The translations under genes were made by a program, and so were the position numbers. Source: Candidatus Poribacteria bacterium (GTDB taxonomy: Bacteria > Poribacteria > WGA-4E > WGA-3G). Taken from it: DNA of 64,000 nt. The notes under the pieces were generated by a model that saw nothing but the letters and a program-made list of their open reading frames with translations, was not told where the DNA came from and made no database searches. Below are positions 3,607 to 61,606 of this stretch, piece by piece; position 1 is the stretch's first letter; each line of letters opens with the position of its first letter. The stretch is from positions 794,640 to 858,639 of the forward strand of contig OZ241845.1 in assembly GCA_965202725.1 (NCBI GenBank), given 5' to 3'.

Positions 3607-3630
3607 AAACAATATTTGTGAACCAGCCTT

Positions 3631-3695
3631 CACAGCCTAACAGGAAACCATGCTACAATAGGATGCCCCCTGCTTGCGGGGGCGGGAGGGTAAGG
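3631..3695. repeat. composite dispersed repeat: A motif (reverse, CACAGCCTAACAGGAAACCATGCTACAA) followed by B motif (CCCCCTGCTTGCGGGGGCGGGAGGGTAAGG)
   Basis: Matches copies at 7877-7955, 50661-50814, 53283-53408, 57943-57969, 20806-20836 and 44771-44800. Confidence 0.7.
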
Positions 3696-8022: not shown

Positions 8023-10467
8023 ATGATTTTGTCCAATAACGTCCTACGATGCTTCTGTCTAATGTTGATACTGTCATTCGGTGCCTTTACCGCCGCCGAT
8101 GGTGAAAAGGATACCCTCAATTTTTCTAAAAATGGCGCGCTATTTTTAGAACGGTACTGTTTCAGTTGTCACGCTGGTGACCAACCCGCTGCTGAACTCT
8201 CCTTGGATTCCTATACAGATAGCCATTCCTTAATTAAGGATCGTGAGGTTTGGGATCGGGTGCTGGACATGGTAGAAACAACACAAATGCCGCCAGCAGA
8301 TAATGAACAACCATCAATAGAAGCATTGGAATCGTTTATTGCGCATATTGAAGCAATCTTTGAACACGCGGACCGCACGGCGAAGCCCGACCCTGGACGC
8401 GTTACAGTCCGCCGCCTCAATAGGGTGGAATACAGAAATACTGTCCGCGACCTCCTCGGTGTCGATTTCAACCCTACCGAAAAGTTTCCTGCAGATGATG
8501 TCGGACACGGGTTTGATAACATTGGTGATGTCCTTTCTATGTCCCCACTGCTAATGGAACGTTACCTTGAAGCCGCGGAGGCAATTGTCTCGCGTGTTAT
8601 CGTATTGGATCCACTGCCTCCCTCCAGATCCTACCGAAACGGGAAAACTCTTGAGCCACTCCACGATGATGTTCCTGATGAACGTTACCGCCTGCTCGAT
8701 CCCACGGCTACAGAGCCGTGGAAATCGGGACCATTTACAACGGGCGCAGACAATTTCAATATAGCACCCGACGTAGAAATTATCTACCACGCGACGCTCT
8801 ATGCAGAGACGGAGCGTGATACCCCTGTAGAGGCCGTCTTATTCATTCAAGGTGACGAATTAGCGCACCTAACCCCACCGGAGAAACTTTCACGCTTAGT
8901 GGGTGTAGATCCGTCAGTGGATAATAACATCAAGGTTTTAAAGGCTTTTAAGATTACCGCTCGCAGCCCTGAAAAAAACCAGACGATTAAAGTCCATATT
9001 ACCGGTATTCCGAACATTGAAAACGTCGGCATCGCAATGCTTAAACCAAAGGAAGGTGAACCAGACGCTAAACTTCAGATTCGTGTGCTCTGGTCAAAAG
9101 GTCCGTTAGAAACCAGACCTAAATCTCATTTCGAGATTCTGGCATGCACACCGGGAATCTCCCAAGCCGAACAGACCCGTGAGGTACTCACGCGCCTGCT
9201 ACGCCGCGGCTATCGCCGTCCACCGACCGAAAACGAAATAGAACACCTCGCGCAGTTTGCTGAATCTGTTCAAGCGGACGGAGCGTCGTGGGAAGCAAGT
9301 GTCCAAGCAGCGATCAAAGTTATTCTCTGTTCACCCAAATTCCTGTTTCGATGGGAGCTCGATGCCCGACCACAAACGCCGGAACCGCATCCGATTGATG
9401 AATTCCAACTCGCTGCGCGGCTCGCCTATTTCATTTGGAGCAGCATGCCAGATGACGAACTCCTTGAACTCGCTGAGACCAAGCAACTCACGGCTAACCT
9501 GGAAGCTCAAGTTAAACGTATGTTAGCTGACGCAAAGGCATCTGAATTAGGGAGCAATTTCGGGGCCCAATGGCTTCAGATTCAACGGTTAACGACAGTC
9601 GCGCCGGATCTCGAAAAATTTCCATATTTCACTGGCAGCTTGCGCTTGGCTATGCAAAAGGAGACAGAACTTTTCGTTGAATCGATCTTTCGCGAAGACA
9701 GGAGTCTGCTTGATCTGATTGATGCCGACTATACCTTCCTTAATCAACCTATCGCGAGCCACTATGGTATCGTTGATACACAAGGAAATTGGCGGAAACA
9801 TAAGAACCCAGTCCCGGGCGGTGAACGGATTCGCGGTAAATCGTTCCGGCGCGTTAAGATACAAGGCACCTCACGCGGTGGAATACTCAGCCACGCCAGT
9901 GTGCTGACGGTGACCTCTAACCCAACGCGCACCTCGCCCGTCAAAAGGGGACGCTGGGTACTCGAACAGATACTCGGTACGCCGCCACCACCGCCACCAC
10001 CAGATGTCCCAGAATTAGAAGAAGAGGCGGCGGTGGTTCATGGAACTACGTTGCGAGAACGCCTTGAGCAACACCGGGCGGATCCAGCATGTGCTAACTG
10101 CCACGCGAAAATGGATCCTATCGGATTTGCTCTCGAAAACTATAATGCAATCGGCGCGTTTCGCTGGAAAGACGGCGAATTGGATATCGACACAACAGCC
10201 GTATTACCGGACGGAACAGTGCTACAACACGGCATCGTAGACTTGAGACGCGTCATCTTGGATCGAAAACAGCAGTTCCTACGTTGCTTGACAGAAAAAT
10301 TGTTAACCTACGCTTTGGGTAGAGGATTAGAATATTACGACCGACCCACTGTTGAACATATCGTGGCACAACTCGAAACCAAGGACTACAGAAGTTCGGT
10401 ACTGATTACAGAAATCGTCAAAAGCGATCCATTCCGGTTACGACGTGGCACAGCAATCAAGCGATGA
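8023..10467 (+). CDS. DUF1592/DUF1588/DUF1585-type (PSD1-like) secreted protein with cytochrome-c-like CxxCH heme-binding motif
   Basis: Signal peptide [32 protein letters not shown] is a CxxCH motif. Large conserved C-terminal region with [26 protein letters not shown] lies 8 nt upstream of the ATG at 8023. The listed ORF start 7897 is a TTG inside the repeat. Confidence 0.7.
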
Positions 10468-11492
10468 TACGTATGACAACTCATGTAATCCTTTTTCTTA
10501 TCGTAATTCTCCACTCCGGGTGTTATACCCTTCCTTATGAAACACCAAATCAAAGCCCAACTTTACAGCTGGAGGAAAAGTACTCTGTTTATTTAGATTC
10601 TACATGGACGGCAGAACAAGCAGACGCGCTTTTAAAGGTTTTTGAATCCATACCCGCAGTGCTGAACCTACGTTTTTCTCAATGGCGCATAAGTGACAAG
10701 GATTTGGAAAACGGTATTAAGATTGAATTTAAAGATAAGTTAAAATTTGTTACAATTAGTAGATACATCTTTCCCATTGAAGGGAATCGAGAGTCGTTGT
10801 CACCCGGAAAGGAGCTATATTTTGCTGTCGTTCAATTCCTAACAGAGCGTGGGACAAACAGAGCCATAATAGAATTAATACTGCAAAAGAGGTATGGTGT
10901 ATACGTACCCTCTTATGATTCCTTAACCGAGGAGACTCCAAGCCAAACATCAAAACGCTATTCAAATTTTGAGAATGAAGACCTGATGCTCATTATATCC
11001 GTATTTGAAGAATTCCCGCAGACACTCCATAAAATACCGAGGCTAGAATATATAGTTCGTAGAATTGATAGGGGTGAAGATGAAGATGAAAGAGGTATGA
11101 GTTATGCTCGGATAGGTCAGGGGCACATAGAGTTTGCTGAATCCATTTTTCACCGCCGTAACGCTAATACGACTCGGCGCGTAATTGCCCACGAAAAGGC
11201 ACATTTTATATGGGCTTTCGTTTTTAATAGTGCACTGAGAGCGGATTGGGCAAAACTTGGGGGATGGCATCGAGATGCAAGCGAATCGGGCTGGTCAACA
11301 ACCAAAGATCGATCAGCTTTTGTATCTGATTATGCTTCTGAAAAAAATCCAAATGAGGATATGGCGGAAAGTATCGCACATTATCTTATATCGCCCCATA
11401 AACTCCGTTCCTGTTGTCCTGAGAAGTATGCGTTTATTCATAAGCGCATGCTTATGTATGCTGAAAGATACGAACCCGCCAATGTTATGTGA
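10464..11492 (+). CDS. hypothetical lipoprotein-like protein with HExxH zinc-metallopeptidase motif; visibly AT-richer than neighbours
   Basis: ATGA start overlaps the stop of the upstream gene. N-terminus is [20 protein letters not shown], and VIAHEKAHFIW is an HExxH motif. Confidence 0.45.
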   Translation: MIRMTTHVILFLIVILHSGCYTLPYETPNQSPTLQLEEKYSVYLDSTWTAEQADALLKVFESIPAVLNLRFSQWRISDKDLENGIKIEFKDKLKFVTISRYIFPIEGNRESLSPGKELYFAVVQFLTERGTNRAIIELILQKRYGVYVPSYDSLTEETPSQTSKRYSNFENEDLMLIISVFEEFPQTLHKIPRLEYIVRRIDRGEDEDERGMSYARIGQGHIEFAESIFHRRNANTTRRVIAHEKAHFIWAFVFNSALRADWAKLGGWHRDASESGWSTTKDRSAFVSDYASEKNPNEDMAESIAHYLISPHKLRSCCPEKYAFIHKRMLMYAERYEPANVM

Positions 11493-49870: not shown

Positions 49871-50344
49871 GAATTAGATTCCTCCTAAAAGAAACTATTG
49901 TTTGGACAATGTAAATTCTTCTCTGCTGGCGGGGTTTTGTGGCGGATTCACCTACATGCGATGTGAATTCCCAACCCCGCTTAACCACGCCAGCGGCGAC
50001 TTCAGTGTTGGGTTTCGCTATCTGTATTACCCAGGAAACCGCCTTGAAAAATGGACGATGTGTGCATTCTGAAGATGGTTCTGGGCTTTCCCGCTCAACC
50101 CAACCTATTTTTAGTTTTGCTTTTACTGCGAGGTTCGGAAACCTTGCCAGCGACAACTGCGGACGCAAAGCGAACAGAACGGCAAGATAGAAACACACAG
50201 GTAGTGAAAAGCAAACCCCGAGCAAAAGTCGCTGATACGTTGTATTCGCGTATGTTTGCTTGGAAATAACGGGAGTAGACTTCCTTGGAGAGGGCGCGGA
50301 ATCAGAAAACAGCGGTTGTGTAAAGTTAACTGAGAGTTGAATCT

Positions 50345-50355
50345 GGGGGGGGGGG
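50345..50355. repeat. G11 homopolymer in the non-coding region upstream of the adhesin gene
   Basis: ctGGGGGGGGGGGtaac. Confidence 0.8.
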
Positions 50356-50516
50356 GTAACAACTGATAAGTTAATATCGCTGTTAGCGAAAGACACATAG
50401 AAGCGAAACCGCCACAAGGTATACGGGCAGACTCGCATCGCTCCACTTCTCTCTTCTTTTACTCCTACATTAACAAGCCAGTTAGCCATCGCTGTTCGCT
50501 GTCCTCAACGCGTTTC

Positions 50517-50566
50517 CCCTTGCTTGTGGGGGGGGGGCGGGGAGGTATTCCCCTAGGTAATGTCAA
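50517..50566. repeat. B-motif copy with expanded G-run (CCCCTTGCTTGTGGGGGGGGGGCGGGGAGG...GGTAATGTCAA)
   Basis: Matches 7888-7925 including the GTAATGTCAA tail. The G-run is G10 here versus G5/G7 elsewhere. Confidence 0.65.
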
Positions 50567-50660
50567 TTATACACCATCTGAACCATAAATGTCAAATTAT
50601 TTCTTCACGTTCACAGACATAAAATACCTTAAACACACCTAACGCGTCAAGTCTTTTTTC

Positions 50661-50814
50661 CATGCTATTCTAAAATAGGTAGGCTGTGCCGTTGTAGCAT
50701 GGTTTCGTGTTAGGCTGTGCCTTACCCTTACCCCCCTACCCCCCGCAAGCAGGCGGGATGCTATTCTTGTAGCATGGTTTCGTGTTAGGCTGTGCCTTAA
50801 GTTGTAGCAAGGTT
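50661..50814. repeat. A-motif cluster: degenerate A, A, B (reverse), A, partial A
   Basis: TTGTAGCATGGTTTCGTGTTAGGCTGTGCC at 50692-50721 and 50767-50796. Between them lies the reverse complement of the B motif. The cluster is immediately 3' of mod1. Confidence 0.75.
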
Positions 50815-50834
50815 CTTGACTGCATAGTTCGGCA

Positions 50835-52511
50835 TCACTCTGTAACAACCGTCTCCTCACCGAGCATATCAATAATCTTCACAGCAACCCGAGCATCAGG
50901 ACGCGGCAGCGATACCGTGTATTCTCCCTCAACAAAGTCAGCCTTTTTCTGTGGAACATCGCTTTCAACGATGTCGAAACGCTCGCCCGTATAATCGGTA
51001 TCGATTAGCACACAATCAACTTGTGCACGGAAGTCCTCAATGTGTTCGCCGAAGAGGGTGCGGTCTATGTCCAAACGCCCCAAGATAGTTGGACTCATAT
51101 AATCTTCAATAGTGATCGTAACGCTCTCTCCGTTTCTTTCAAAGCTAACATCTGCTTCGGCAGCCGCATAAGTAGTCACACCATCACGTTGAATATCGCG
51201 CACGATGAATTTGTTTATCCCGCGTCGCTGGTTTTCTTTAACAAGTTCTTCCTGAATTCCGATCTCGCTCCCATTGCATAGCAGCGTGATGTTGCGTGCC
51301 TCATCTGGGCGATTTTGGAGTTCGTCTTTAATAAGTTGAACATCCAATCGATTGAACGGTCTTGTAAGGTCAATAATTTTGACGAGTGTCCCGTCCAGTG
51401 TGCCGTCAAAAAACGCTTCTCGCCTGTCCGTTTGCACGCCATATTTTTTGATAACAATATTCCTTCGTTCTAAATGTGTGCTGGCATCGTAGTTATTGAC
51501 ACGATAGTGGGCAATGCCGCGCCGCATCTCTGGTAACTTCTGTAGTCTTTTGAGTGTCGTCTGGATGGCCCCTTTGTTGATATCCGCAGCAATCCAGCGC
51601 CTACCGAGTTCCTCCGCTATGACTGCAGTGGTTCCGCTACCAATAAAACAATCAAGAACGATAGAATCCTTGTTGCTCGAGGCTTTAAGAATAGGTTCTA
51701 TTAAATTTTTAGGTTTTTGAGTAGGAAAGTCGGAACGTTCCCGATCCATAGTGTTAAGCGAAGGTTGAATAATCACATCATCAGGAGTTTTACCTGTTGG
51801 CATATCCTTTCCTGCTTGTCCTCCCCTGTTGTATCGCCACTCGGTCATTCCGCTTTCAAAAGGCACTAGAATTTCATCTCGATTGAAAATGTATTTGTCC
51901 GGCGATTTGGTATACCAAAAAATAGTCTCATGTGCATGGGCTAATCTCTTTTTTCCACGAGAGGCATTTTTGTAGTACCAAATAATTTCATTCTGGAAGA
52001 GGTCTTTGTCAAATATTTCGTCCATGAGTACTTTCAGATAGTGACTTTTTTCATGGTTGCAATGCAGGTAAATTGAACCTTTATCTGATAACAATTCATA
52101 CATCAAAATGAGTCGTTCATACATAAACTGCAAATAGTTGTCATTTGCCCAAATATCAGTGTATTGTGTTTGCTCGACAAAAGAGGGACCTTCGCCTGCT
52201 AATTCTTTCTCTTCACCGCGCAGTTTTACCTTTCGCACATAGTCTGCTCCACTGTCAAACGGTGGATCGATATAAATGAGGTCTATTTTACCACGAAACC
52301 CTTGCACAAGCAATGTGGAGAGAATCTCTTTGTTGTCTCCGTGAAAAAGGAGATTGGGCCCCTCCTTGAATCTGTCGTAAGTCGGTTCCTTTTCTGGGTT
52401 TTCTATGTTGTAGGTTTCGACTAATTGTGCAGGATAGTTGCTGATTGTGTCAATCGGGCGTTTGCCGACCCAATGCAACATCGGTCTGCCTTTAACGGGT
52501 TTGATTTTCAT
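50835..52511 (-). CDS. Type III restriction-modification methyltransferase Mod, paralogue 1 (beta-class N6A/N4C MTase) with ~230-aa conserved C-terminal extension
   Basis: Motif IV IDLIYIDPPF near the N-terminus, a variable middle target-recognition region, motif X PTQKP, motif I VLDCFIGSGTTAV, then a long C-terminal domain shared by all copies. Start placed at MKIKPVKG (ATG 52511). The listed ORF starts 15 nt upstream. Confidence 0.6.
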   Translation of the reverse strand: MKIKPVKGRPMLHWVGKRPIDTISNYPAQLVETYNIENPEKEPTYDRFKEGPNLLFHGDNKEILSTLLVQGFRGKIDLIYIDPPFDSGADYVRKVKLRGEEKELAGEGPSFVEQTQYTDIWANDNYLQFMYERLILMYELLSDKGSIYLHCNHEKSHYLKVLMDEIFDKDLFQNEIIWYYKNASRGKKRLAHAHETIFWYTKSPDKYIFNRDEILVPFESGMTEWRYNRGGQAGKDMPTGKTPDDVIIQPSLNTMDRERSDFPTQKPKNLIEPILKASSNKDSIVLDCFIGSGTTAVIAEELGRRWIAADINKGAIQTTLKRLQKLPEMRRGIAHYRVNNYDASTHLERRNIVIKKYGVQTDRREAFFDGTLDGTLVKIIDLTRPFNRLDVQLIKDELQNRPDEARNITLLCNGSEIGIQEELVKENQRRGINKFIVRDIQRDGVTTYAAAEADVSFERNGESVTITIEDYMSPTILGRLDIDRTLFGEHIEDFRAQVDCVLIDTDYTGERFDIVESDVPQKKADFVEGEYTVSLPRPDARVAVKIIDMLGEETVVTE

Positions 52512-52956
52512 TGTGTTCCGTCCCATGCCTCAAAATGTGTATAAATTTTTCTGGGGGCACGATCTGTATTTGCTCATAACTACCTAAATCCAATAGGTCC
52601 CGGTCTCGACTTACGATATAATCGGCTGATACTGCCACAGCGCAGGAGATAATCATGTCGTCTTTAGGGTCGCGTTCTATGACACGAATTTCTGGCAATT
52701 GTGCAACTATAATGCTAATATCTTTCAGGTAATCGATAAAAATTTCTGCTTTTTCTGAGGGATATGTATAACGATTCCGTATGTGTGGTTTCTCTAAAAG
52801 TACATGGCGAATTTCCTGTAAAATTTCTGCCGACGTGTAAAGATTGACATTTTCCTGACACTGAGACACCAAGGCTGCTGTCAATCCCTGGGTAAGAAAA
52901 GCACTTACGGCGACAACGCTATCAAGGACAACGCGTAGTTTTCTTCTGTTTGTCAT
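52492..52956 (-). CDS. PIN-domain toxin (VapC-like)
   Basis: RVVLDSVVAVSA (N-terminal Asp) ... CAVAVSADYIVSRDRD acidic residues typical of PIN. Start placed at MTNRRK (ATG 52956). Its 3' end overlaps the mod1 start by ~20 nt. Confidence 0.5.
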   Translation of the reverse strand: MTNRRKLRVVLDSVVAVSAFLTQGLTAALVSQCQENVNLYTSAEILQEIRHVLLEKPHIRNRYTYPSEKAEIFIDYLKDISIIVAQLPEIRVIERDPKDDMIISCAVAVSADYIVSRDRDLLDLGSYEQIQIVPPEKFIHILRHGTEHNENQTR

Positions 52957-53224
52957 ATTCTTCCTGTCGACACTCAGCAACAGCGCGCTCAACATCTTGA
53001 TAGACTTCTTCTTCACTGATCCCTCTATTTTGTTCATGGACGCTTTTCATTAATTGCAAAAGTTTCGCCCAATTTTCAGGGGTCGTTGATTTCTTAGGCA
53101 TGATCACTACACAATCACCCTCAATCCGTGCATCCACGATATCGCCCTTCTTGAGCCCTAAACTTTCTCGGATCTGTTTCGGAATAGTTATCTGTCCATG
53201 TTCGAGAATCTTGGCAATTGCCAC
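52922..53224 (-). CDS. AbrB/MazE/SpoVT-family antitoxin
   Basis: MAIAKILEHGQITIPKQIRESLGLKKGDIVDARIEGDCVVIMPK is a swapped-hairpin AbrB signature. GTG start. Overlaps the PIN gene by ~35 nt. Confidence 0.5.
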   Translation of the reverse strand: MAIAKILEHGQITIPKQIRESLGLKKGDIVDARIEGDCVVIMPKKSTTPENWAKLLQLMKSVHEQNRGISEEEVYQDVERAVAECRQEEYDKQKKTTRCP

Positions 53225-53282: not shown

Positions 53283-53408
53283 GTTGTAGCATGGTTTCCT
53301 GTTAGGCTGTGTCTCTTCCGTAGCATGGTTTCCTTTAGGCTGTGCCTCCTTCATAGCATAGCCTCCGCGCTTGCGGGGGCGTAGCATAGTTTCCGATTAG
53401 GCTGTGCC
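53283..53408. repeat. A-motif cluster (3 copies) with B-like fragment CCTCCGCGCTTGCGGGGGCG
   Basis: GTTGTAGCATGGTTTCCTGTTAGGCTGTG, GTAGCATGGTTTCCTTTAGGCTGTGCC, GTAGCATAGTTTCCGATTAGGCTGTGCC. Lies between the toxin-antitoxin pair and mod2. Confidence 0.75.
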
Positions 53409-53526
53409 GTTCCGTTCCCCGTAATAAACAAGCGGACATCCGCGCTTAATTCCGCACGTACCTTTCAGTGTGTCTTCTCGTAACAGAGAAACCACCTCAT
53501 CAGGTTCTTGACTGAAGAGTTCGGCA

Positions 53527-55266: not shown

Positions 55267-55425
55267 TGTATGTTCTTCCTATGTTATAGAATCTTGATCG
55301 ACAATACTATATAACGTAAGTTTGATAAATACTTGTACGAAATCAATGTGTGCGTTTTCGGTATCGCGGGGGATCTCAAGGTTACCTTCAAGATAGGTAC
55401 TATGATACTCCTCAATCCTACTTAA

Positions 55426-56019
55426 TCAACAAGCTTTCTTGAAAAACAAAGCAACCAGAATGAAGAATAACAATGTTGGAACTGCAACCACAAACATACG
55501 AGACCAGTCATTCCAAATTTGGTTGAAATGCATGAATAATTCTCCGAAGTTAGAAACTGGAATGAGTCTAGGGGCTGATTTCTTGAATAATTGTTTTTCA
55601 GTCATTTTTCGCCTTTCACCACCAAAATTGACTGTAACCTCTGCATCGCTGGGACAGAAAGTGTTTTTAGGGTATTTAGAAAGATGGTGCAAAATACATT
55701 CTGCTTTTTTAAGGTAAAAGTTTCTTCGCCATGCGTCATTTGCCATTGCTACAGCAACTCCAATTTGCCACATAACGTAAATAATGTGTATACCTAGCGC
55801 AAATAAGGCTAGTCCAATACTTTGCCATCGTTCAATAGACAGTGATGTTGCTTTTATAATTTGGTAAAAAGCTAAAATGAGTAGCGTCATATACGAGATA
55901 AAAATCCTAAATTCAACGGTTCTCCTGTCATCATGCCGCTTTGCTCCAAATTCAGCAATGTCCAGCATACCCTGCAAGTTCTCTCTATCCTTGTCGAAGT
56001 TATCTTTATTGTTCATCAC
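55426..56019 (-). CDS. hypothetical 4-TM membrane protein, markedly AT-rich, embedded in the restriction-modification locus
   Basis: 197 aa, hydrophobic helices (FRIFISYMTLLILAFYQII, LALFALGIHIIYVMWQIGVAV, VVAVPTLLFFILVALFF). No recognisable family. Confidence 0.4.
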   Translation of the reverse strand: MMNNKDNFDKDRENLQGMLDIAEFGAKRHDDRRTVEFRIFISYMTLLILAFYQIIKATSLSIERWQSIGLALFALGIHIIYVMWQIGVAVAMANDAWRRNFYLKKAECILHHLSKYPKNTFCPSDAEVTVNFGGERRKMTEKQLFKKSAPRLIPVSNFGELFMHFNQIWNDWSRMFVVAVPTLLFFILVALFFKKAC

Positions 56020-56088
56020 TTACCTCTCAGTGTGTCTTCTCGTAACAGAGAAACCACCTCATCAGGTTCTTGACTGAAGAGTTCGGCA

Positions 56089-57790
56089 TCACTCGGTAAC
56101 AACCGTCTCCTCACCAAGCATATCAATAATCTTCACAGCAACGCCAGCATCAGAACGCGGCAGTGATACCGTGTATTTTCCCTCAACAAAGTCAGTCTTT
56201 TTCTGTGGAACATCGCTTTCAACGATATTGAAATGCTCACCCGTATAATCGGTATCGATTAGCACACAATCAACCTGGGCTCGGAAGTCCTCAATGTGTT
56301 CGCCGAAGAGGGTGCGGTCTATGTCCAAACGCCCTAAGATAGTGGGACTCATATAATCTGCTATAGTGATCGTAACGCTCTCTCCGTTTCTTTCAAAGCT
56401 AACATCTGCTTCAGCAGCCGCATAAGTGGTCACACCATCACGTTGAATATCGCGCACGATGAATTTGTTTATCCCGCGTCGCTAGTTTTCTTTAACAAGT
56501 TCTTCCTGAATTCCGATCTCGCTCCCATTGCATAACACCGTGATGTTGCGTGCCTCATCTGGGCGATTTTGGAGTTCGTCTTTAATAAGTTGAACATCCA
56601 ATCGGGTGAACGGTCTTGTAAGGTCAATGATTTTGACGAGTGTCCCGTCCAGTGTGCCGTCAAAAAACGCCTCGCGCCTATTCGTTTGCACGCCATATTT
56701 TTTGATAACAATATCCCTTCGTTCTAAGTGCGTACTGGCATCGTAGTTATTGACACGATAGTGGGCAATGCCGCGCCGCATCTCTGGTAACTTCTGTAGT
56801 CTTTTGAGTGTCGTCTGGATGGCCCCTTTGTTGATATCCGCAGCAATCCAGCGCCTACCGAGTTCCTCCGCTATGACTGCAGTGGTTCCGCTACCAATAA
56901 AACAATCAAGGACAATAGAATTTTTATCGCTTGATGCTTTGATGATACGTTCTACAAGCTTTTCAGGTTTCTGGGTAGGAAATTGTTGCCGCTCTTTCGC
57001 ACTTCTACTGATAATGCCGATTTCAAATAGGTCTGATGGCAATTGCCCCTTTGGGTGTGCGTACCACTTTTTACCTGAAGAATCTAATGTGTAATAACCC
57101 TCTCCGTCCTGTTTGTAACCTTTTAGTTGTTCTGCTTTATAAGGTTCCCGCATTTCATCTAAGTGAAAAATCCAATCTTCGGCACTTTTAGCGTACCAAA
57201 AGATCGTATCATGTTTCTGAGAGAACTTCTTTCTTACTGTACTTGCCCAATTATACTTCCAGACGATTTCGTTGACGAAATTACCCTCTCCGAATACTTC
57301 GTCTAATAGTAAACGTAGATGATGATTTTTGTGTGAATCGCAATGAAGATAGAGACTTCCCCTATCACTTGAGTTCGCGCATCAAAATGAGCCGTTCAAA
57401 CATGAATTGAAGGTAGTTATCATTTGCCCAGATGTCGGTATATTGCGTCTGCTCAATAAGGGAATGGCCTTCCGCCTCTAAGTTTTTCTGTCCTCCACGT
57501 AATGCTACCTTTCGCACATAGTCTGCTCCACTGTCAAACGGTGGATCGATATAAATGAGGTCTATTTTACCACGAAACCCTTGCACAAGCAATGTGGAGA
57601 GAATCTCTTTGTTGTCTCCGTGAAAAAGGAGATTGGGCCCCTCCTTGAATCTGTCGTAAGTCGGTTCCTTTTCTGGGTTTTCTATGTTGTAGGTTTCGAC
57701 TAATTGTGCAGGATAGTTGCTGATTGTGTCAATCGGGCGTTTGCCGACCCAATGCAACATCGGTCTGCCTTTAACTGGCTTGATTTTCAT
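56089..57790 (-). pseudogene. Type III Mod paralogue 3, decayed
   Basis: N-terminal fragment 57365-57790, target-recognition region + motif I fragment 56482-57153, C-terminal fragment 56089-57457. Broken by a frameshift near 57360 and a CAG to TAG nonsense at 56483-56485 (gtcgcTAGtttt versus gtcgcTGGtttt in the intact copies). Carries a third distinct target-recognition region. Confidence 0.55.
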
Positions 57791-57942: not shown

Positions 57943-57969
57943 GCACAGGCTAACGGTTTCCTATGCTAC
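57943..57969. repeat. A-motif copy (reverse: CACAGGCTAACGGTTTCCTATGCTACA) plus partial copy, between res and the mod array
   Basis: Overlaps the res stop codon region. Confidence 0.6.
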
Positions 57970-60620
57970 AGGGCCTCCCCTTTAATATCGGTCCCATAAA
58001 TCCATTCGCGGATAGTTCGCGTTTCATCGTCTAAATTCTCTTGGAGAAAAGCGTCGCGTGTATAAATGACCTTATATTCAAAGTGAACATCTGGCTGTAA
58101 ATTTTTCAGACGTTCCACTGCCTTCTCTTTTGCTACGACGGTAGGGTCCCCGCGTTCACTTTCAGACTTAATCTCAACAATGTAGAATTCTCCAGTGTTC
58201 TTGACGATAACAAAATCAGGAAAATAGCGGTGATAATTGTTATCAGCCCCCTTGTATTCAAAGTGAAAATCGGTTTTCTTGGTATTCGTTAAACTTCCAG
58301 TAAACAGCAACATTTTGATATCTGCAACGGATTGATTCAACGTTGCCAACACCTTCTTAAAGAAGTTCTGTTCGGGGCTACTATCAAAATTGTAAGGCGT
58401 ATAGTGATAACTCACATCGTGGTTGTCATCTAAGTCACATTCACTGAGCAACAGGTCAATTTTGCTCTTGCGCACACGTACCTTGTGAACATAACAGTTC
58501 TCAACCGCATCCTTTTCAAAAAGAGGATTGCCATCGTCATCGTGGGTACGGATAAGGGCAAGGTGTTTCGTAATCGTTTCCTCAATCACTTCGTAATTTT
58601 GCTGCTGTTCTTCCACCTGTTTACATAGCGAATAGTAGTGTTTGGCTGGAACCTGCCCCTCTGGATAGAGGCTTTTGAGACTTTTAAGTGTTTCCATCGC
58701 AGAGAGGTGATAGTTTGTAGCAAGTCGTCTCGCCAGCGTGTAACAATCGGTTGTTTGATTAGCAATTTCAACCTCGTCCTGCGTTCCTAACGTTGTTAGC
58801 GGTGAAGCACCGCGATGCGTAAAATCAGGGGTTAGAATGCTGCGAAAAGCAGGCGGAGTCTTCTCAACGTCTGCTGTAGGGAGATGGAGCTGAATCTTTT
58901 TAGGTGCTGTTTCCAATGGCACAACCCGGCGCACCCATTGCATAATTTTTAATTTTGGCAAATCAGGCTTGCGAATGCGCAGTGCGATATCTTGTGTTTC
59001 TGCGTCTTGTGCGCGGAGCTCACCGAGCGTAGTCCCAAAGTTTGCCTGTAGCTCTCTATCCAAAATCGCACTGTTTTTCCTATCCAAAAATATTTTTGCA
59101 GTGTGGGTGTTGCCTTTCACTTGACGGAGACATCGGGTTGAGGCTTGCAAAATAAAGTTGCTACTGGTTGTTTGTTCCTTAATAAGGGCGCAAGCGAATA
59201 GGCTTGGACAATTCCATCCTTCTGTCCCTTTACCAATAAGTAGAATGACACGTTTCTGACTGTCAGGATTGTTGAGGTGATTGAATTCATCAATTTCCTG
59301 CGGACTTGATTTTTGGGTATTGACAAGTATCTGAGTGGTACTCTCTCTCCTTTGGGTAAGTGCGTTTTGAATATGCTGATGGGAGGTATCCAAATGTTCT
59401 TGTGTCTTGAAGTAAAAGGCGATTTTCGCTTTCGCACCATTCGGTAAGGATACGTTGCCGTAGTTGTCAAAAAAATCGTTGATAACGTTACGCATCACGT
59501 CTGCATCAGGAATCGTTCCGATAGGGTATTGAACAATGCCGTTGTGAAGACTTTTGAGAATGTTGTCCTTAATTCCTTCCCCGAGACTGTACCATGCCAC
59601 AACCTCTCTGAGCATCTGCCGTTTGGCGTAAGGCGTGCCAGTGGTATTGATTACAGCTACGAGAGACGTTTTCTCATGTATGTAGTTAACCGTCTCGCGC
59701 ACCCGTTTAAGCTCTGCGTCTATCTTGTTGCCGTAGGTATGATGTGCCTCATCTGAGAAGACCCCTAACCGGGGCAGGCTTGTAATTTTTTGGAGGCGGA
59801 GATTGGCTTCTAATTCCGCTTGTTCCTTCTTCTCTGCGAATTCTAATTCTGTCTGATTACGCCGTTTTCTCACATGTGCTCGAAGCGCGATTTTCTCAGT
59901 GTTTGTGACAACGACGTTGTAACTACTATTGGTTTGAACTTGAATGTCTTTCGCACCTGCTTGTGGATAGGTAATCTTGAGGTTGGCCAAAAAATCGCGG
60001 TGTAGACTGGCAGGTAGAACCTGATCAAATGGTATATCGCTAATCTCGCGTAGACTTTCGATAATGGTTGTACCGGGGGCGAAGACGAGGGCGTTCTTCA
60101 TGAAGTCGCCCTCAGGATAACGGAGCGCCATCGCGAATTCGGTTGCGATAATGGTGCCGATAAGCACAGTCTTGCCGGTGCCCATTGCCAGGGCGAAGAT
60201 ATAACTCGGATACGGGAGTGTGACAGCCTCGTAGACAGGGTCAATTCGCTTCTGTTTAACGAATTCCGGGGTGTTTTCTACCAAGTTAAGGATCGCGTCA
60301 ACATCTCTAATCAAGATCAGTTCTTGGGGAGAGATGGGGATACCGAAGGCTTCGCAGAAATCACGTATATCGTCAGTGTCGTAGTAATGCCTATAGAGTT
60401 TGACAATATGCGGGGTTTTTAGCACTAATCGCAGGTACCAATAGAGTTCCAGTGATTGGAATTGCGGGTGGCGGAGGTATTTGAGGGAGATTTCCTCCGG
60501 TGGCTCGCCTTCACATTGATAGCGCAGAATCTCACCGATAAGGGGATACTCTGGACAGGGGTATCCTGTATTGCGCCAGTTGAGTGTGTCGTCGCGCAGT
60601 TTTTCAAAAAGGTGTTGCAT
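57966..60620 (-). CDS. Type III restriction enzyme Res subunit (SF2 helicase-like ATPase + C-terminal PD-ExK nuclease)
   Basis: Walker A ALAMGTGKTVLIG. DEAH box VFSDEAHHTYG. C-terminal D-x-EIK (DFVIVKNTGEFYIVEIKSE). 884 aa. Confidence 0.65.
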   Translation of the reverse strand: MQHLFEKLRDDTLNWRNTGYPCPEYPLIGEILRYQCEGEPPEEISLKYLRHPQFQSLELYWYLRLVLKTPHIVKLYRHYYDTDDIRDFCEAFGIPISPQELILIRDVDAILNLVENTPEFVKQKRIDPVYEAVTLPYPSYIFALAMGTGKTVLIGTIIATEFAMALRYPEGDFMKNALVFAPGTTIIESLREISDIPFDQVLPASLHRDFLANLKITYPQAGAKDIQVQTNSSYNVVVTNTEKIALRAHVRKRRNQTELEFAEKKEQAELEANLRLQKITSLPRLGVFSDEAHHTYGNKIDAELKRVRETVNYIHEKTSLVAVINTTGTPYAKRQMLREVVAWYSLGEGIKDNILKSLHNGIVQYPIGTIPDADVMRNVINDFFDNYGNVSLPNGAKAKIAFYFKTQEHLDTSHQHIQNALTQRRESTTQILVNTQKSSPQEIDEFNHLNNPDSQKRVILLIGKGTEGWNCPSLFACALIKEQTTSSNFILQASTRCLRQVKGNTHTAKIFLDRKNSAILDRELQANFGTTLGELRAQDAETQDIALRIRKPDLPKLKIMQWVRRVVPLETAPKKIQLHLPTADVEKTPPAFRSILTPDFTHRGASPLTTLGTQDEVEIANQTTDCYTLARRLATNYHLSAMETLKSLKSLYPEGQVPAKHYYSLCKQVEEQQQNYEVIEETITKHLALIRTHDDDGNPLFEKDAVENCYVHKVRVRKSKIDLLLSECDLDDNHDVSYHYTPYNFDSSPEQNFFKKVLATLNQSVADIKMLLFTGSLTNTKKTDFHFEYKGADNNYHRYFPDFVIVKNTGEFYIVEIKSESERGDPTVVAKEKAVERLKNLQPDVHFEYKVIYTRDAFLQENLDDETRTIREWIYGTDIKGEAL

Positions 60621-60659: not shown

Positions 60660-60755
60660 ATTACGATTATACCATGCTTGCGTAAAATGACGGAGTTTGA
60701 GTCGGCTATTGATGATAGTAATCCGATTACGATTATACCATGCTTGCGTAAAATG
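60660..60755. promoter_or_regulatory. two 30-bp direct repeats (ATTACGATTATACCATGCTTGCGTAAAATG) in the res upstream region, candidate operator/promoter elements
   Basis: Copies at 60660-60689 and 60726-60755, 40-135 bp upstream of the res start codon. Confidence 0.3.
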
Positions 60756-60841: not shown

Positions 60842-61432
60842 TTAATCGGGAAATGTGACACGCGCGTATATTTCCTGCAAAGGCAATTCGCACGGGGTAG
60901 AAGAGAGGTGCAGGATTTCGTCAAGTCTTTGGAAATCAGTGAGAACCCACTGTTTTTCTTCACGACGGTAATGCTCAACACAAATCTTGTCTTGGGCAAC
61001 AAGGATGTATTCCTGTAATGATGTGAGTTGGCGATAGTGAGCAAATTTTTCGCCTCTGTCGTACGCTTCTGTTGATGGAGAAAGCACCTCTACAACGACA
61101 ATCGGGTTCAGGAGCATGTCAAAAATATCGCCTTCAAAGCGCGGTTCTTCACAGACAACACCGACATCGGGATAAAAATAGGATCGTGCTGTGGGTATGC
61201 TGATACGCATATCGTTGGCGAAAACGACACAATCAGTGCCTTGCAAGCTGGTATGCAATCTCACAGAAATGTTCATTGTTATCAGGTTGTGTGCGAAACT
61301 TGCTCCGGGCATAGGAATAACTTCTCCATTCATATACTCGTGTCTAACTATTTCTGAATCGGGAATAAATTTGCGTTCAAAAGCAATATATTCTTCGGGT
61401 GTGAGGTGGGTTTGTGCTGCAGGGGTTGCCAT
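60842..61432 (-). CDS. Uma2-family (DUF820) PD-(D/E)xK putative endonuclease
   Basis: EEYIAFERK...EYMNGEV N-terminus and ...PDVGVV...IVVVEVLSPSTEAYDRGEK...EY match the Uma2 pattern. Confidence 0.6.
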   Translation of the reverse strand: MATPAAQTHLTPEEYIAFERKFIPDSEIVRHEYMNGEVIPMPGASFAHNLITMNISVRLHTSLQGTDCVVFANDMRISIPTARSYFYPDVGVVCEEPRFEGDIFDMLLNPIVVVEVLSPSTEAYDRGEKFAHYRQLTSLQEYILVAQDKICVEHYRREEKQWVLTDFQRLDEILHLSSTPCELPLQEIYARVTFPD

Positions 61433-61606
61433 GATTCTCCTCCAGAAATTCTTAGTGATTCTATTATAGCACAGTTGTTCACAATTTTTCTTGCAAAAAT
61501 TGTGAACGCCAGTTATAATACCGCAATAAAGTACCGAATCACATATCAGATTTTAATATAGGTGCTAATAACAACTTGCATGATTTCTATATGGAGGAGA
61601 AAAAAC

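Follow-up and report, generated by a model that had tools for sequence, protein, structure and literature searches.

What does a small, AT-rich membrane protein gene do in the middle of a row of DNA methylase genes, and did it arrive there on its own? The question is raised by a 64,000-nucleotide stretch of a Candidatus Poribacteria genome (contig OZ241845.1, positions 794,640 to 858,639), referred to here as the window and numbered from its first letter, in which a gene for a short transmembrane (TM) protein lies between mod2, an intact Type III DNA methylase gene, and the broken remnant of another, mod3, all on the minus strand. A preliminary description, made from the sequence alone, had placed the gene correctly and had proposed a protein of four TM helices without family signal, acquired as a separate cassette and possibly acting as an abortive-infection-type effector. 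Our analysis points instead to three membrane helices and to a gene that appears to be an original member of its restriction-modification row; the protein is probably a membrane component of methylation-linked phage defense.

This proposal comes from the company that the gene family keeps, because its members adjoin methylases of several architectures and otherwise lie in restriction or defense islands. We compared about 25 distinct loci, with some neighbors checked only by BLAST against the window mod genes. The TM-family gene directly adjoins a co-oriented DNA methylase gene in 10 of these loci, and the direct neighbor carries an N6_N4_Mtase domain in nine (the window, L001, L009, L010, L005, L006, L007, L019, and L026). 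The arrangements are varied. The gene follows a Type III mod in the window, L001, L009, and L010; stands 9 to 23 nucleotides before an N6_N4_Mtase protein of about 505 amino acids with weak Mrr-type nuclease matches in L005, L006, and L007; precedes a methylase of about 330 amino acids in L019; and in L026 lies 56 nucleotides after an N6_N4_Mtase-HNH fusion and before a Schlafen/AlbA_2 gene. At L021 it is found 89 nucleotides before a 1627-amino-acid Type ISP enzyme. Within 5 kb, restriction-modification genes accompany the family in about 19 of the approximately 25 loci; within about this distance are Type ISP enzymes (L012 and L023), a Type IIG enzyme (L003), two TIR-domain genes followed by a Type III mod-res pair (L014), and an EcoRI-type methylase with GmrSD-HNH (L027). 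Methylase-adjacent members fall into at least four clades of a rough neighbor-joining tree, and the methylase link is therefore either old or repeatedly re-formed.

Two further gene families were seen at these loci. Small stand-alone DUF6575 (PF20215) genes lie near the TM gene at L006 (7412-7828), L013 (7843-8148), and L016 (14477-14806), and at L023 (2086-7443) DUF6575 is fused to the N terminus of the Type ISP enzyme, which suggests that it is an accessory module of restriction-modification systems. An unannotated family of about 160 to 180 amino acids flanks the TM gene at L008 (7251-7736) and L014 (8629-9123 and 11779-12330); one L014 copy sits between the two TIR genes, upstream of the Type III mod-res pair.

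The TM gene of the window is intact. Its open reading frame (ORF) spans 55426-56019 with a GTG start at 56019, giving 197 amino acids; an ATG one codon further in, at 56016, stands 6 nucleotides after a Shine-Dalgarno-like GAGAGG. We take this ATG as the likely start and 55426-56016 as the coding sequence, and the resulting 196-amino-acid protein is 100% identical to P0001, a called gene product in public data. Measured against the three closest orthologues (84-88% identical), the ratio of nonsynonymous to synonymous substitution rates (dN/dS) is 0.11-0.16 at a synonymous rate (dS) of 0.39-0.55. The gene is therefore real and under constraint, and a spurious ORF is ruled out.

The history of the locus was read from its orthologues. 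On the minus strand the order is Uma2, res, mod3, the TM gene, mod2, an AbrB-PIN pair, mod1, a gap of about 1 kb, and a gene for a large He_PIG/LTD surface protein (Table 1). At L001, L009, and L010, where the family proteins share 84-88% identity with that of the window, the order is res...mod-TM, and the mod-TM spacers of 68 to 73 nucleotides align with the mod3-TM spacer of the window. L010, a contig from a Poribacteria metagenome-assembled genome (MAG), shares the gene order of the window at 83-86% nucleotide identity, with 84% identity between the res products; it is collinear with window positions 63999-57994 and again through the TM gene, and homology ends a few bases from the TM stop. 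Because the three loci share both order and spacer, the TM gene is, by this comparison, the ancestral 3' partner of mod and the ancestral last gene of the res-mod row. The co-oriented res and mod row of a Type III operon is present, and the TM gene is kept there in all three relatives; the gene belongs to the operon and not to the enzyme, a membrane subunit being no defining part of Type III systems.

In the simplest reading of the sequences, mod2, the toxin-antitoxin pair, and mod1 would have been added downstream of the original mod-TM pair by recombination between mod genes. The three mod copies share about 430 nucleotides at their 5' ends and 920 to 980 at their 3' ends, at 75-94% identity, and differ in their central regions, where target recognition presumably resides. 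A second copy of the mod3-TM spacer forms the 3' flank of mod2 and takes in the ribosome-binding site and two or three initial TM codons; past this point the sequence diverges into a hairpin followed by the AbrB-PIN pair. We also considered that the TM gene had been inserted between pre-existing mod copies and rejected this, the mod-TM pair being ancestral and the extra mod copies the additions. Three mod paralogues with one res could form a multi-specificity or allele-swapping arrangement. A comparable array occurs at a distantly related Poribacteria locus, L005 (3741-12483), where four tandem units, each a coiled-coil ORF of 68 to 88 amino acids plus an N6_N4 methylase of about 505 amino acids, have ends that are 88-96% identical and a variable middle, as in the window mod array; tandem methylase arrays with swapped centers may be a recurrent feature of Poribacteria.

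The spacer between mod3 and the TM gene holds no detectable terminator, and the TM gene is probably co-transcribed with mod, judging from the arrangement of the sequence. A stem-loop predicted in this spacer recurs in four genomes and in the spacer copy behind mod2; the changes are mostly one-sided with weak covariation, no T-run follows, and we regard it only as a candidate regulatory or processing element. Downstream, a promoter-like match lies at 55429-55402 (a consensus match only).

The low GC content noticed in the preliminary description was confirmed. The gene has a GC of 0.375 and a third-position GC (GC3) of 0.364, the former being the lowest among 42 long ORFs of the window (mean GC, 0.485 +/- 0.036; mean GC3, 0.491 +/- 0.052) and below the flanking res and mod genes (0.44-0.46). 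Amino-acid content explains part of the gap, as the first-position GC is 0.43 versus about 0.53, and the third position is low as well. Family genes lie 8 to 12 GC points under their neighbors in 17 of 17 loci tested, and family GC3, offset from that of the neighbors by a mean of 0.117 +/- 0.048, tracks neighbor GC3 (r = 0.64, P = 0.005). Because this offset is found at every locus tested, low GC is a trait of the whole family and no mark of recent arrival at the window locus; with the mod-TM order and spacer ancestral in addition, the separately acquired cassette that had been read from composition is not supported at this locus. The second-lowest GC in the window belongs to a 342-amino-acid ORF at 10464-11492 (GC, 0.408; GC3, 0.351), far from the restriction island.

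Hydropathy gives the window protein three hydrophobic segments, at residues 36-56, 64-92, and 170-196; in the layout used for comparison with MisC they fall at 33-61, 65-92, and 171-196. An AlphaFold2 model of the single chain, built from a 46-sequence alignment, agrees on three helices in the membrane and has a mean predicted local distance difference test score (pLDDT) of 90.7 and a predicted template modeling score (pTM) of 0.82. Helices 3-56 and 64-115, of about 50 residues each, form a long hairpin; after it come a beta-hairpin (127-140), short helices, and a C-terminal helix (172-196). The four helices first proposed were thus one too many; the long second hydrophobic segment was probably read by eye as two, and a fourth, C-terminal helix is present in some relatives. 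The protein would be a small inner-membrane protein in which a cytoplasmic N-terminal helix leads into TM1, and TM2 into a cytoplasmic helical stalk; the stalk would then pass into a soluble insert of about 55 to 80 residues, including the beta-hairpin, before TM3 ends the protein.

Invariant or nearly invariant residues in the family are A22, R32, R33, F37, Y43, T45, L47, Y81, W84, A91, N94, D95, R98, R99, F101, L103, K105, E107, and P181. A22 lies on the N-terminal helix and P181 in TM3, and the others fall in TM1 and TM2 and in the charged clusters beside them. The most conserved charged or polar set (R32, R33, N94, D95, R98, R99, K105, and E107) forms clusters just before TM1 and just after TM2, which the model places on paired helices at the cytoplasmic face.

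In three members (P0012, P0017, and P0021, residues 1-125) the membrane part is preceded by a fused soluble domain of about 120 amino acids; at L008 (9126-9773) and L016 (11035-11475) this domain has a gene of its own, immediately downstream of the membrane gene. Such a fusion links the family to a cytoplasmic partner and locates the N terminus in the cytoplasm. Pfam, NCBIfam, and PDB profile searches with the domain returned no match, and AlphaFold2 modeled it at low confidence within the fusion protein (pLDDT, 41-79). A winged helix of the MGMT/ATL type was suspected by eye; no tool backed it, and we do not claim it.

The family is narrow. A search of 5.8 billion proteins returned 87 relatives, which share 39-100% identity with the query and carry no Pfam domain; when 1.84 billion cluster representatives were scanned exhaustively with HMMER, 88 were found at an E value of <=0.001; and a profile search raised the family to 175 members. 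Among reference genomes, taken one per species, 15 of 15 recovered loci were in Candidatus Poribacteria MAGs, in a scan that relied on one conserved peptide pattern and so sampled with bias. Every taxonomically named member is likewise from Candidatus Poribacteria, and Joint Genome Institute (JGI) metagenomes yielded one relative, on one short contig. The family is thus known only from sponge-symbiont Poribacteria, where it is patchy, multi-copy, and outside conserved housekeeping contexts. The IMG/VR viral contigs and the plasmid records that we searched held no relative. Nor did the predicted viral protein structures of BFVD give a significant match, and so there is no sign in them of a phage holin or exclusion relative. 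Profile searches of the PDB with the family found designed proteins only, and structure searches found no significant match for the protein.

One family signal recurs. The window protein matches PF24838 (8xMP) with an E value of 0.013 and 15.8 bits, under the gathering cutoff of 30 bits, so that the earlier statement of no family signal was nearly right. The same Pfam family is matched by 10 of 46 members, the best being P0125 (E value, 7e-7; 29.5 bits, also below 30), which is flagged PF24838.3 in the precomputed table; the next most frequent Pfam family is matched by only three of the 46. Because the match recurs, bona fide 8xMP genes exist in Poribacteria, and the order of elements is similar, this weak match appears not to be noise, and it is the sole recurrent family signal on sequence.

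Table 1. Features of the restriction-modification row in the window
Feature	Position	Strand	Basis or remark
Uma2-family gene	60845-61435	minus	Pfam
res, Type III-like restriction gene, intact, 884 amino acids, head of the row	57966-60620	minus	ResIII domain
mod3, Type III methylase pseudogene, next to res	56089-57790	minus	N6_N4_Mtase domain on middle fragment
mod3-TM spacer, 72 nucleotides, with GAGAGG	56017-56088	minus	Alignment to orthologous loci and to the copy after mod2
Candidate stem-loop, 11 pairs	56029-56059	minus	RNAalifold on 5 sequences; about 10-40 nucleotides upstream of the TM start
TM gene (196-amino-acid three-pass membrane protein)	55426-56016	minus	ORF list, public gene product P0001, dN/dS, hydropathy, AlphaFold2
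Spacer from TM stop to mod2 start	55267-55425	minus	Mostly unique; homology to other mod copies from about 55287-55299
mod2, intact Type III methylase paralogue, 579 amino acids	53527-55266	minus	ORF and Pfam
AbrB/MazE-type antitoxin and PIN toxin pair	52492-53224	minus	Pfam; has the place after mod2 that the TM gene has after mod3
mod1, intact third Type III methylase paralogue, 563 amino acids	50835-52526	minus	ORF and Pfam

Our proposal, held tentatively and at somewhat less than even confidence, is that the TM protein is an oligomeric membrane effector of abortive infection coupled to methylation-based defense. It would form a pore or act as a depolarizer in the inner membrane and so cause abortive infection, and it would be tied to the partner methylase or restriction system through the state of methylation or through that system's activity. 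It could be triggered by methylated mononucleotides freed when a phage degrades host DNA, as for MisC of the Metis defense system, or, in the manner of the PrrC guard, by a loss of function of restriction-modification. An oligomer or pore is suggested by the recurrent top weak Pfam match, to an "octameric membrane protein," and by the MisC-like layout. The defense-effector idea of the preliminary description is accordingly plausible, the recurrent defense and methylase neighborhoods supporting it by association.

Several observations weigh against this proposal. In the window itself the operon partner of the TM gene is a pseudogene, mod3 being disrupted by a single frameshift near 57370 and by an in-frame TAG at 56482-56484. 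(Switching of mod3 by phase variation at a simple repeat was considered and rejected, as the frameshift lies outside any repeat tract.) About 6 of the 25 loci have no restriction-modification gene nearby (L015, L017, L018, L022, L024, and L025). Sponge symbionts are described as unusually rich in restriction-modification and toxin-antitoxin genes (PMC5649159), and the chance background for such adjacency is therefore above the usual. A PADLOC-DB v2 scan of the window protein returned zero families at an E value of <=0.1, and scans of PHROGs and NCBIfam gave no meaningful match. Alignment of the family to 22 Poribacterial 8xMP proteins with hhalign was collinear over 87 columns and weak (E value, 0.036; probability, 1.4%), and all family scores remain under the curated 30-bit cutoff. 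No sequence homology to MisC was found, the hhalign match being non-collinear with an E value of 0.1 and hmmsearch giving no meaningful match in either direction; the profile behind these comparisons has low power, as it holds four MisC candidates fetched from plasmids, where they lie next to or are fused to MisB. Finally, tblastn with four MisB queries (HAD phosphatase, PF13419) and one MisA query found no match in the window and 29 Poribacteria loci (454 kb).

The alternative that survives best, possible although on balance doubtful, is that the family is independent defense-island cargo, acting in superinfection exclusion or abortive infection, and that its adjacency to methylases reflects shared recombination-prone islands with no coupling. 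L005 speaks for it most clearly: there the TM-family gene is a precise insertion of about 745 nucleotides into unit 3 of the tandem array, which fits a discrete mobile cassette. The window fits as well, each mod copy being followed by different cargo (the TM gene, the AbrB-PIN pair, or nothing), as do the family-wide low GC, which is typical of a mobile accessory gene pool, and the several loci without an adjacent methylase. What co-residence alone explains poorly is a co-oriented adjacency of 9 to 90 nucleotides to varied methylases in at least four clades, and the conservation of the mod-TM spacer and its stem-loop between genomes likewise argues for a tie to the methylase.

Unlikely, in our estimate, is a non-toxic role as a membrane anchor or regulator that tethers or sequesters Mod and Res near entering phage DNA or controls the methylase. 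Its attraction lies in the long cytoplasmic helical stalk with its conserved charged surface, as modeled, in the probable co-transcription with mod, and in the domain of about 120 amino acids, which, fused in three members and separate at L008 and L016, suggests docking of cytoplasmic partners. The partner methylases, however, have only their catalytic core in common and no shared docking domain, and the family also stands beside unrelated genes; moreover, we know of no membrane anchor of this kind for Type III systems.

A holin-like addiction toxin that stabilizes the restriction-modification island, in the role of the AbrB-PIN pair, is in our view very unlikely. The TM gene does take the place after mod3 that the toxin-antitoxin pair has after mod2, and its product is small and multi-pass, but no conserved antitoxin partner gene was found next to it across loci, and at about 200 amino acids, with a structured portion in the cytoplasm, the protein does not resemble known small membrane toxins. 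That the gene is an ordinary housekeeping membrane protein gene or a spurious ORF with no defense link, as its lack of annotated function and of significant structural matches might suggest, is extremely improbable given the purifying selection, which excludes a spurious ORF, and given that the family is lineage-restricted, patchy, multi-copy, low in GC, and outside conserved housekeeping contexts.

Repeats and signals elsewhere in the row were recorded as well. A repeat of about 30 nucleotides, GTAGCATGGTTTCGTGTTAGGCTGTGCC (minus strand), occurs in pairs 75 to 95 nucleotides apart downstream of mod1 and of mod2 (50692-50724 and 50767-50799; 53283-53314 and about 53381-53420) and once more 47 kb away (3629-3656). 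By chance no copy is expected, and a related motif, GTAGCAT...GTTAG.CTGTGC, lies upstream of mod3; the repeat may be a genome-wide short interspersed repeat that marks recombination junctions. In the intergenic region between Uma2 and res, a perfect 30-nucleotide direct repeat (60660-60689 and 60726-60755) overlaps a promoter-like site at 60760-60732 (TTGCCC-17-TATAAT, with a TG extension) and may be an operator for the res-mod row.

At the other end of the row, the PIN ORF overlaps the AbrB/MazE ORF by 116 nucleotides and, at its 3' end, the start of mod1 by 35; as the PIN domain takes up the ORF only from residue 35 onward, the true start is probably near the antitoxin stop, a typical toxin-antitoxin junction. 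The stretch of about 1 kb between mod1 and the surface protein gene (49874-50835) has no convincing gene, its 210-amino-acid ORF being without a Pfam match; it contains G- and C-rich runs and, at 50595-50566, a perfect sigma-70 consensus (TTGACA-18-TATAAT) aimed at the surface protein gene. No Rfam RNA or tRNA was found at the island edge.

Small membrane effectors that kill infected cells are an already known kind of defense component, and several such systems can be compared with our proposed methylation-coupled effector. SLATT-domain proteins, KwaA of Kiwa, and RexB are short multi-pass inner-membrane effectors of defense islands and are thought to be pores or depolarizers. When the window protein and 45 relatives were scanned against Pfam, no SLATT family was found (for the multi-member scan, among the top 25 families listed), and the sole SLATT-like structural match was insignificant (E value, 1.8). 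The guard logic of PrrC offers a different parallel. This anticodon nuclease, whose gene lies within the row of the EcoprrI Type I locus without being a restriction gene, is a second-line suicide effector held in check by restriction-modification proteins; unlike the membrane-bound TM protein, it is a soluble ATPase-nuclease, and we know of no sequence or structural relation between the two. By analogy only, a PrrC-type logic, in which the TM protein would fire when the restriction system is inhibited, is possible.

The 8xMP proteins resemble the TM family in their order of elements: an N-terminal helix with an RR motif, TM1, TM2, a conserved helix, an insert, and a further TM segment. They differ in that bona fide 8xMP proteins have four hydrophobic segments and the window protein three, and in that a conserved single-pass partner gene follows 8xMP and is missing from the TM family. 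Poribacteria also carry bona fide 8xMP genes, in comparable mobile or restriction contexts and once, at L025, 2 kb from a TM-family member. In the literature searched we found no paper on what 8xMP does.

The Poribacterial 8xMP genes and their partners were observed at L025 (6508-7584), L028 (6001-7074), and L029 (6001-7219). The partner, a single-pass protein with a repeated beta-rich C-terminal motif, is present in all cases, its gene directly abutting 8xMP or overlapping it by a few bases, and the pair has the look of a two-gene module. Nearby are, at L029, a Type ISP gene and a gene fragment and, at L028, an IS1595 transposase.

The closest functional parallel that we consider is MisC, the effector of type II Metis, which has three membrane helices and no annotated domain and is predicted to form an octameric ring or pore with a predicted pocket for N6-methyl-deoxyadenosine monophosphate (m6dAMP) in its intracellular part (Osterman et al., 10.1101/2025.11.05.686725). 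Addition of m6dAMP halts the growth of cells carrying type II Metis, and defense by this system needs host N6-adenine (Dam) DNA methylation (10.1101/2025.11.05.686725). By hydropathy and AlphaFold2, the window protein likewise spans the membrane three times, with an intracellular insert separating TM2 from TM3. The likeness extends to the order of parts (an N-terminal helix of about 30 amino acids, TM1, TM2, a cytoplasmic insert of 50 to 80 amino acids, and TM3) and to conserved residues in the helices before TM1 and after TM2 in both families. The Pseudomonas syringae MisC has hydropathy segments at 31-47, 51-83, and 136-164, the other three candidates being similar, and one of the four candidates has 8xMP as its best weak Pfam match (E value, 0.008). 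The methylation dependence of Metis, moreover, has its parallel in the physical linkage of the TM family to genes for adenine or cytosine amino-methyltransferases. By these analogies the TM protein may work like MisC, though it is no demonstrable member of the MisC family.

A stronger form of this comparison, which we hold to be distinctly doubtful, would make the TM protein the sensor-effector of a self-contained Metis-like module hard-wired to restriction-modification methylases. The adjacent Mod or another N6/N4 methyltransferase would mark host DNA, and binding of the ligand at the conserved charged site on the stalk and insert would open an oligomeric pore. Osterman et al. predict Metis variants that carry their own methylase (10.1101/2025.11.05.686725). 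If the Metis-like form is true, the TM family would be the membrane-effector version of this so far only predicted arrangement; a family without detectable similarity to MisC would act without the MisB phosphatase; and restriction-modification methylation would double as the signal source for a second layer of defense.

We found no prior description of a family wired to methyltransferase genes in Type III, Type ISP, and single-chain methylase-nuclease loci. Should the coupling not be real, the analysis still describes a lineage-restricted accessory membrane protein and corrects the history of its locus. Should it be real, restriction-modification operons can carry a built-in second layer, and mod2 together with the 196-amino-acid gene would be a clonable test case for a recent proposal, namely that cells detect the degradation of their genome by phage by way of methylated nucleotides.

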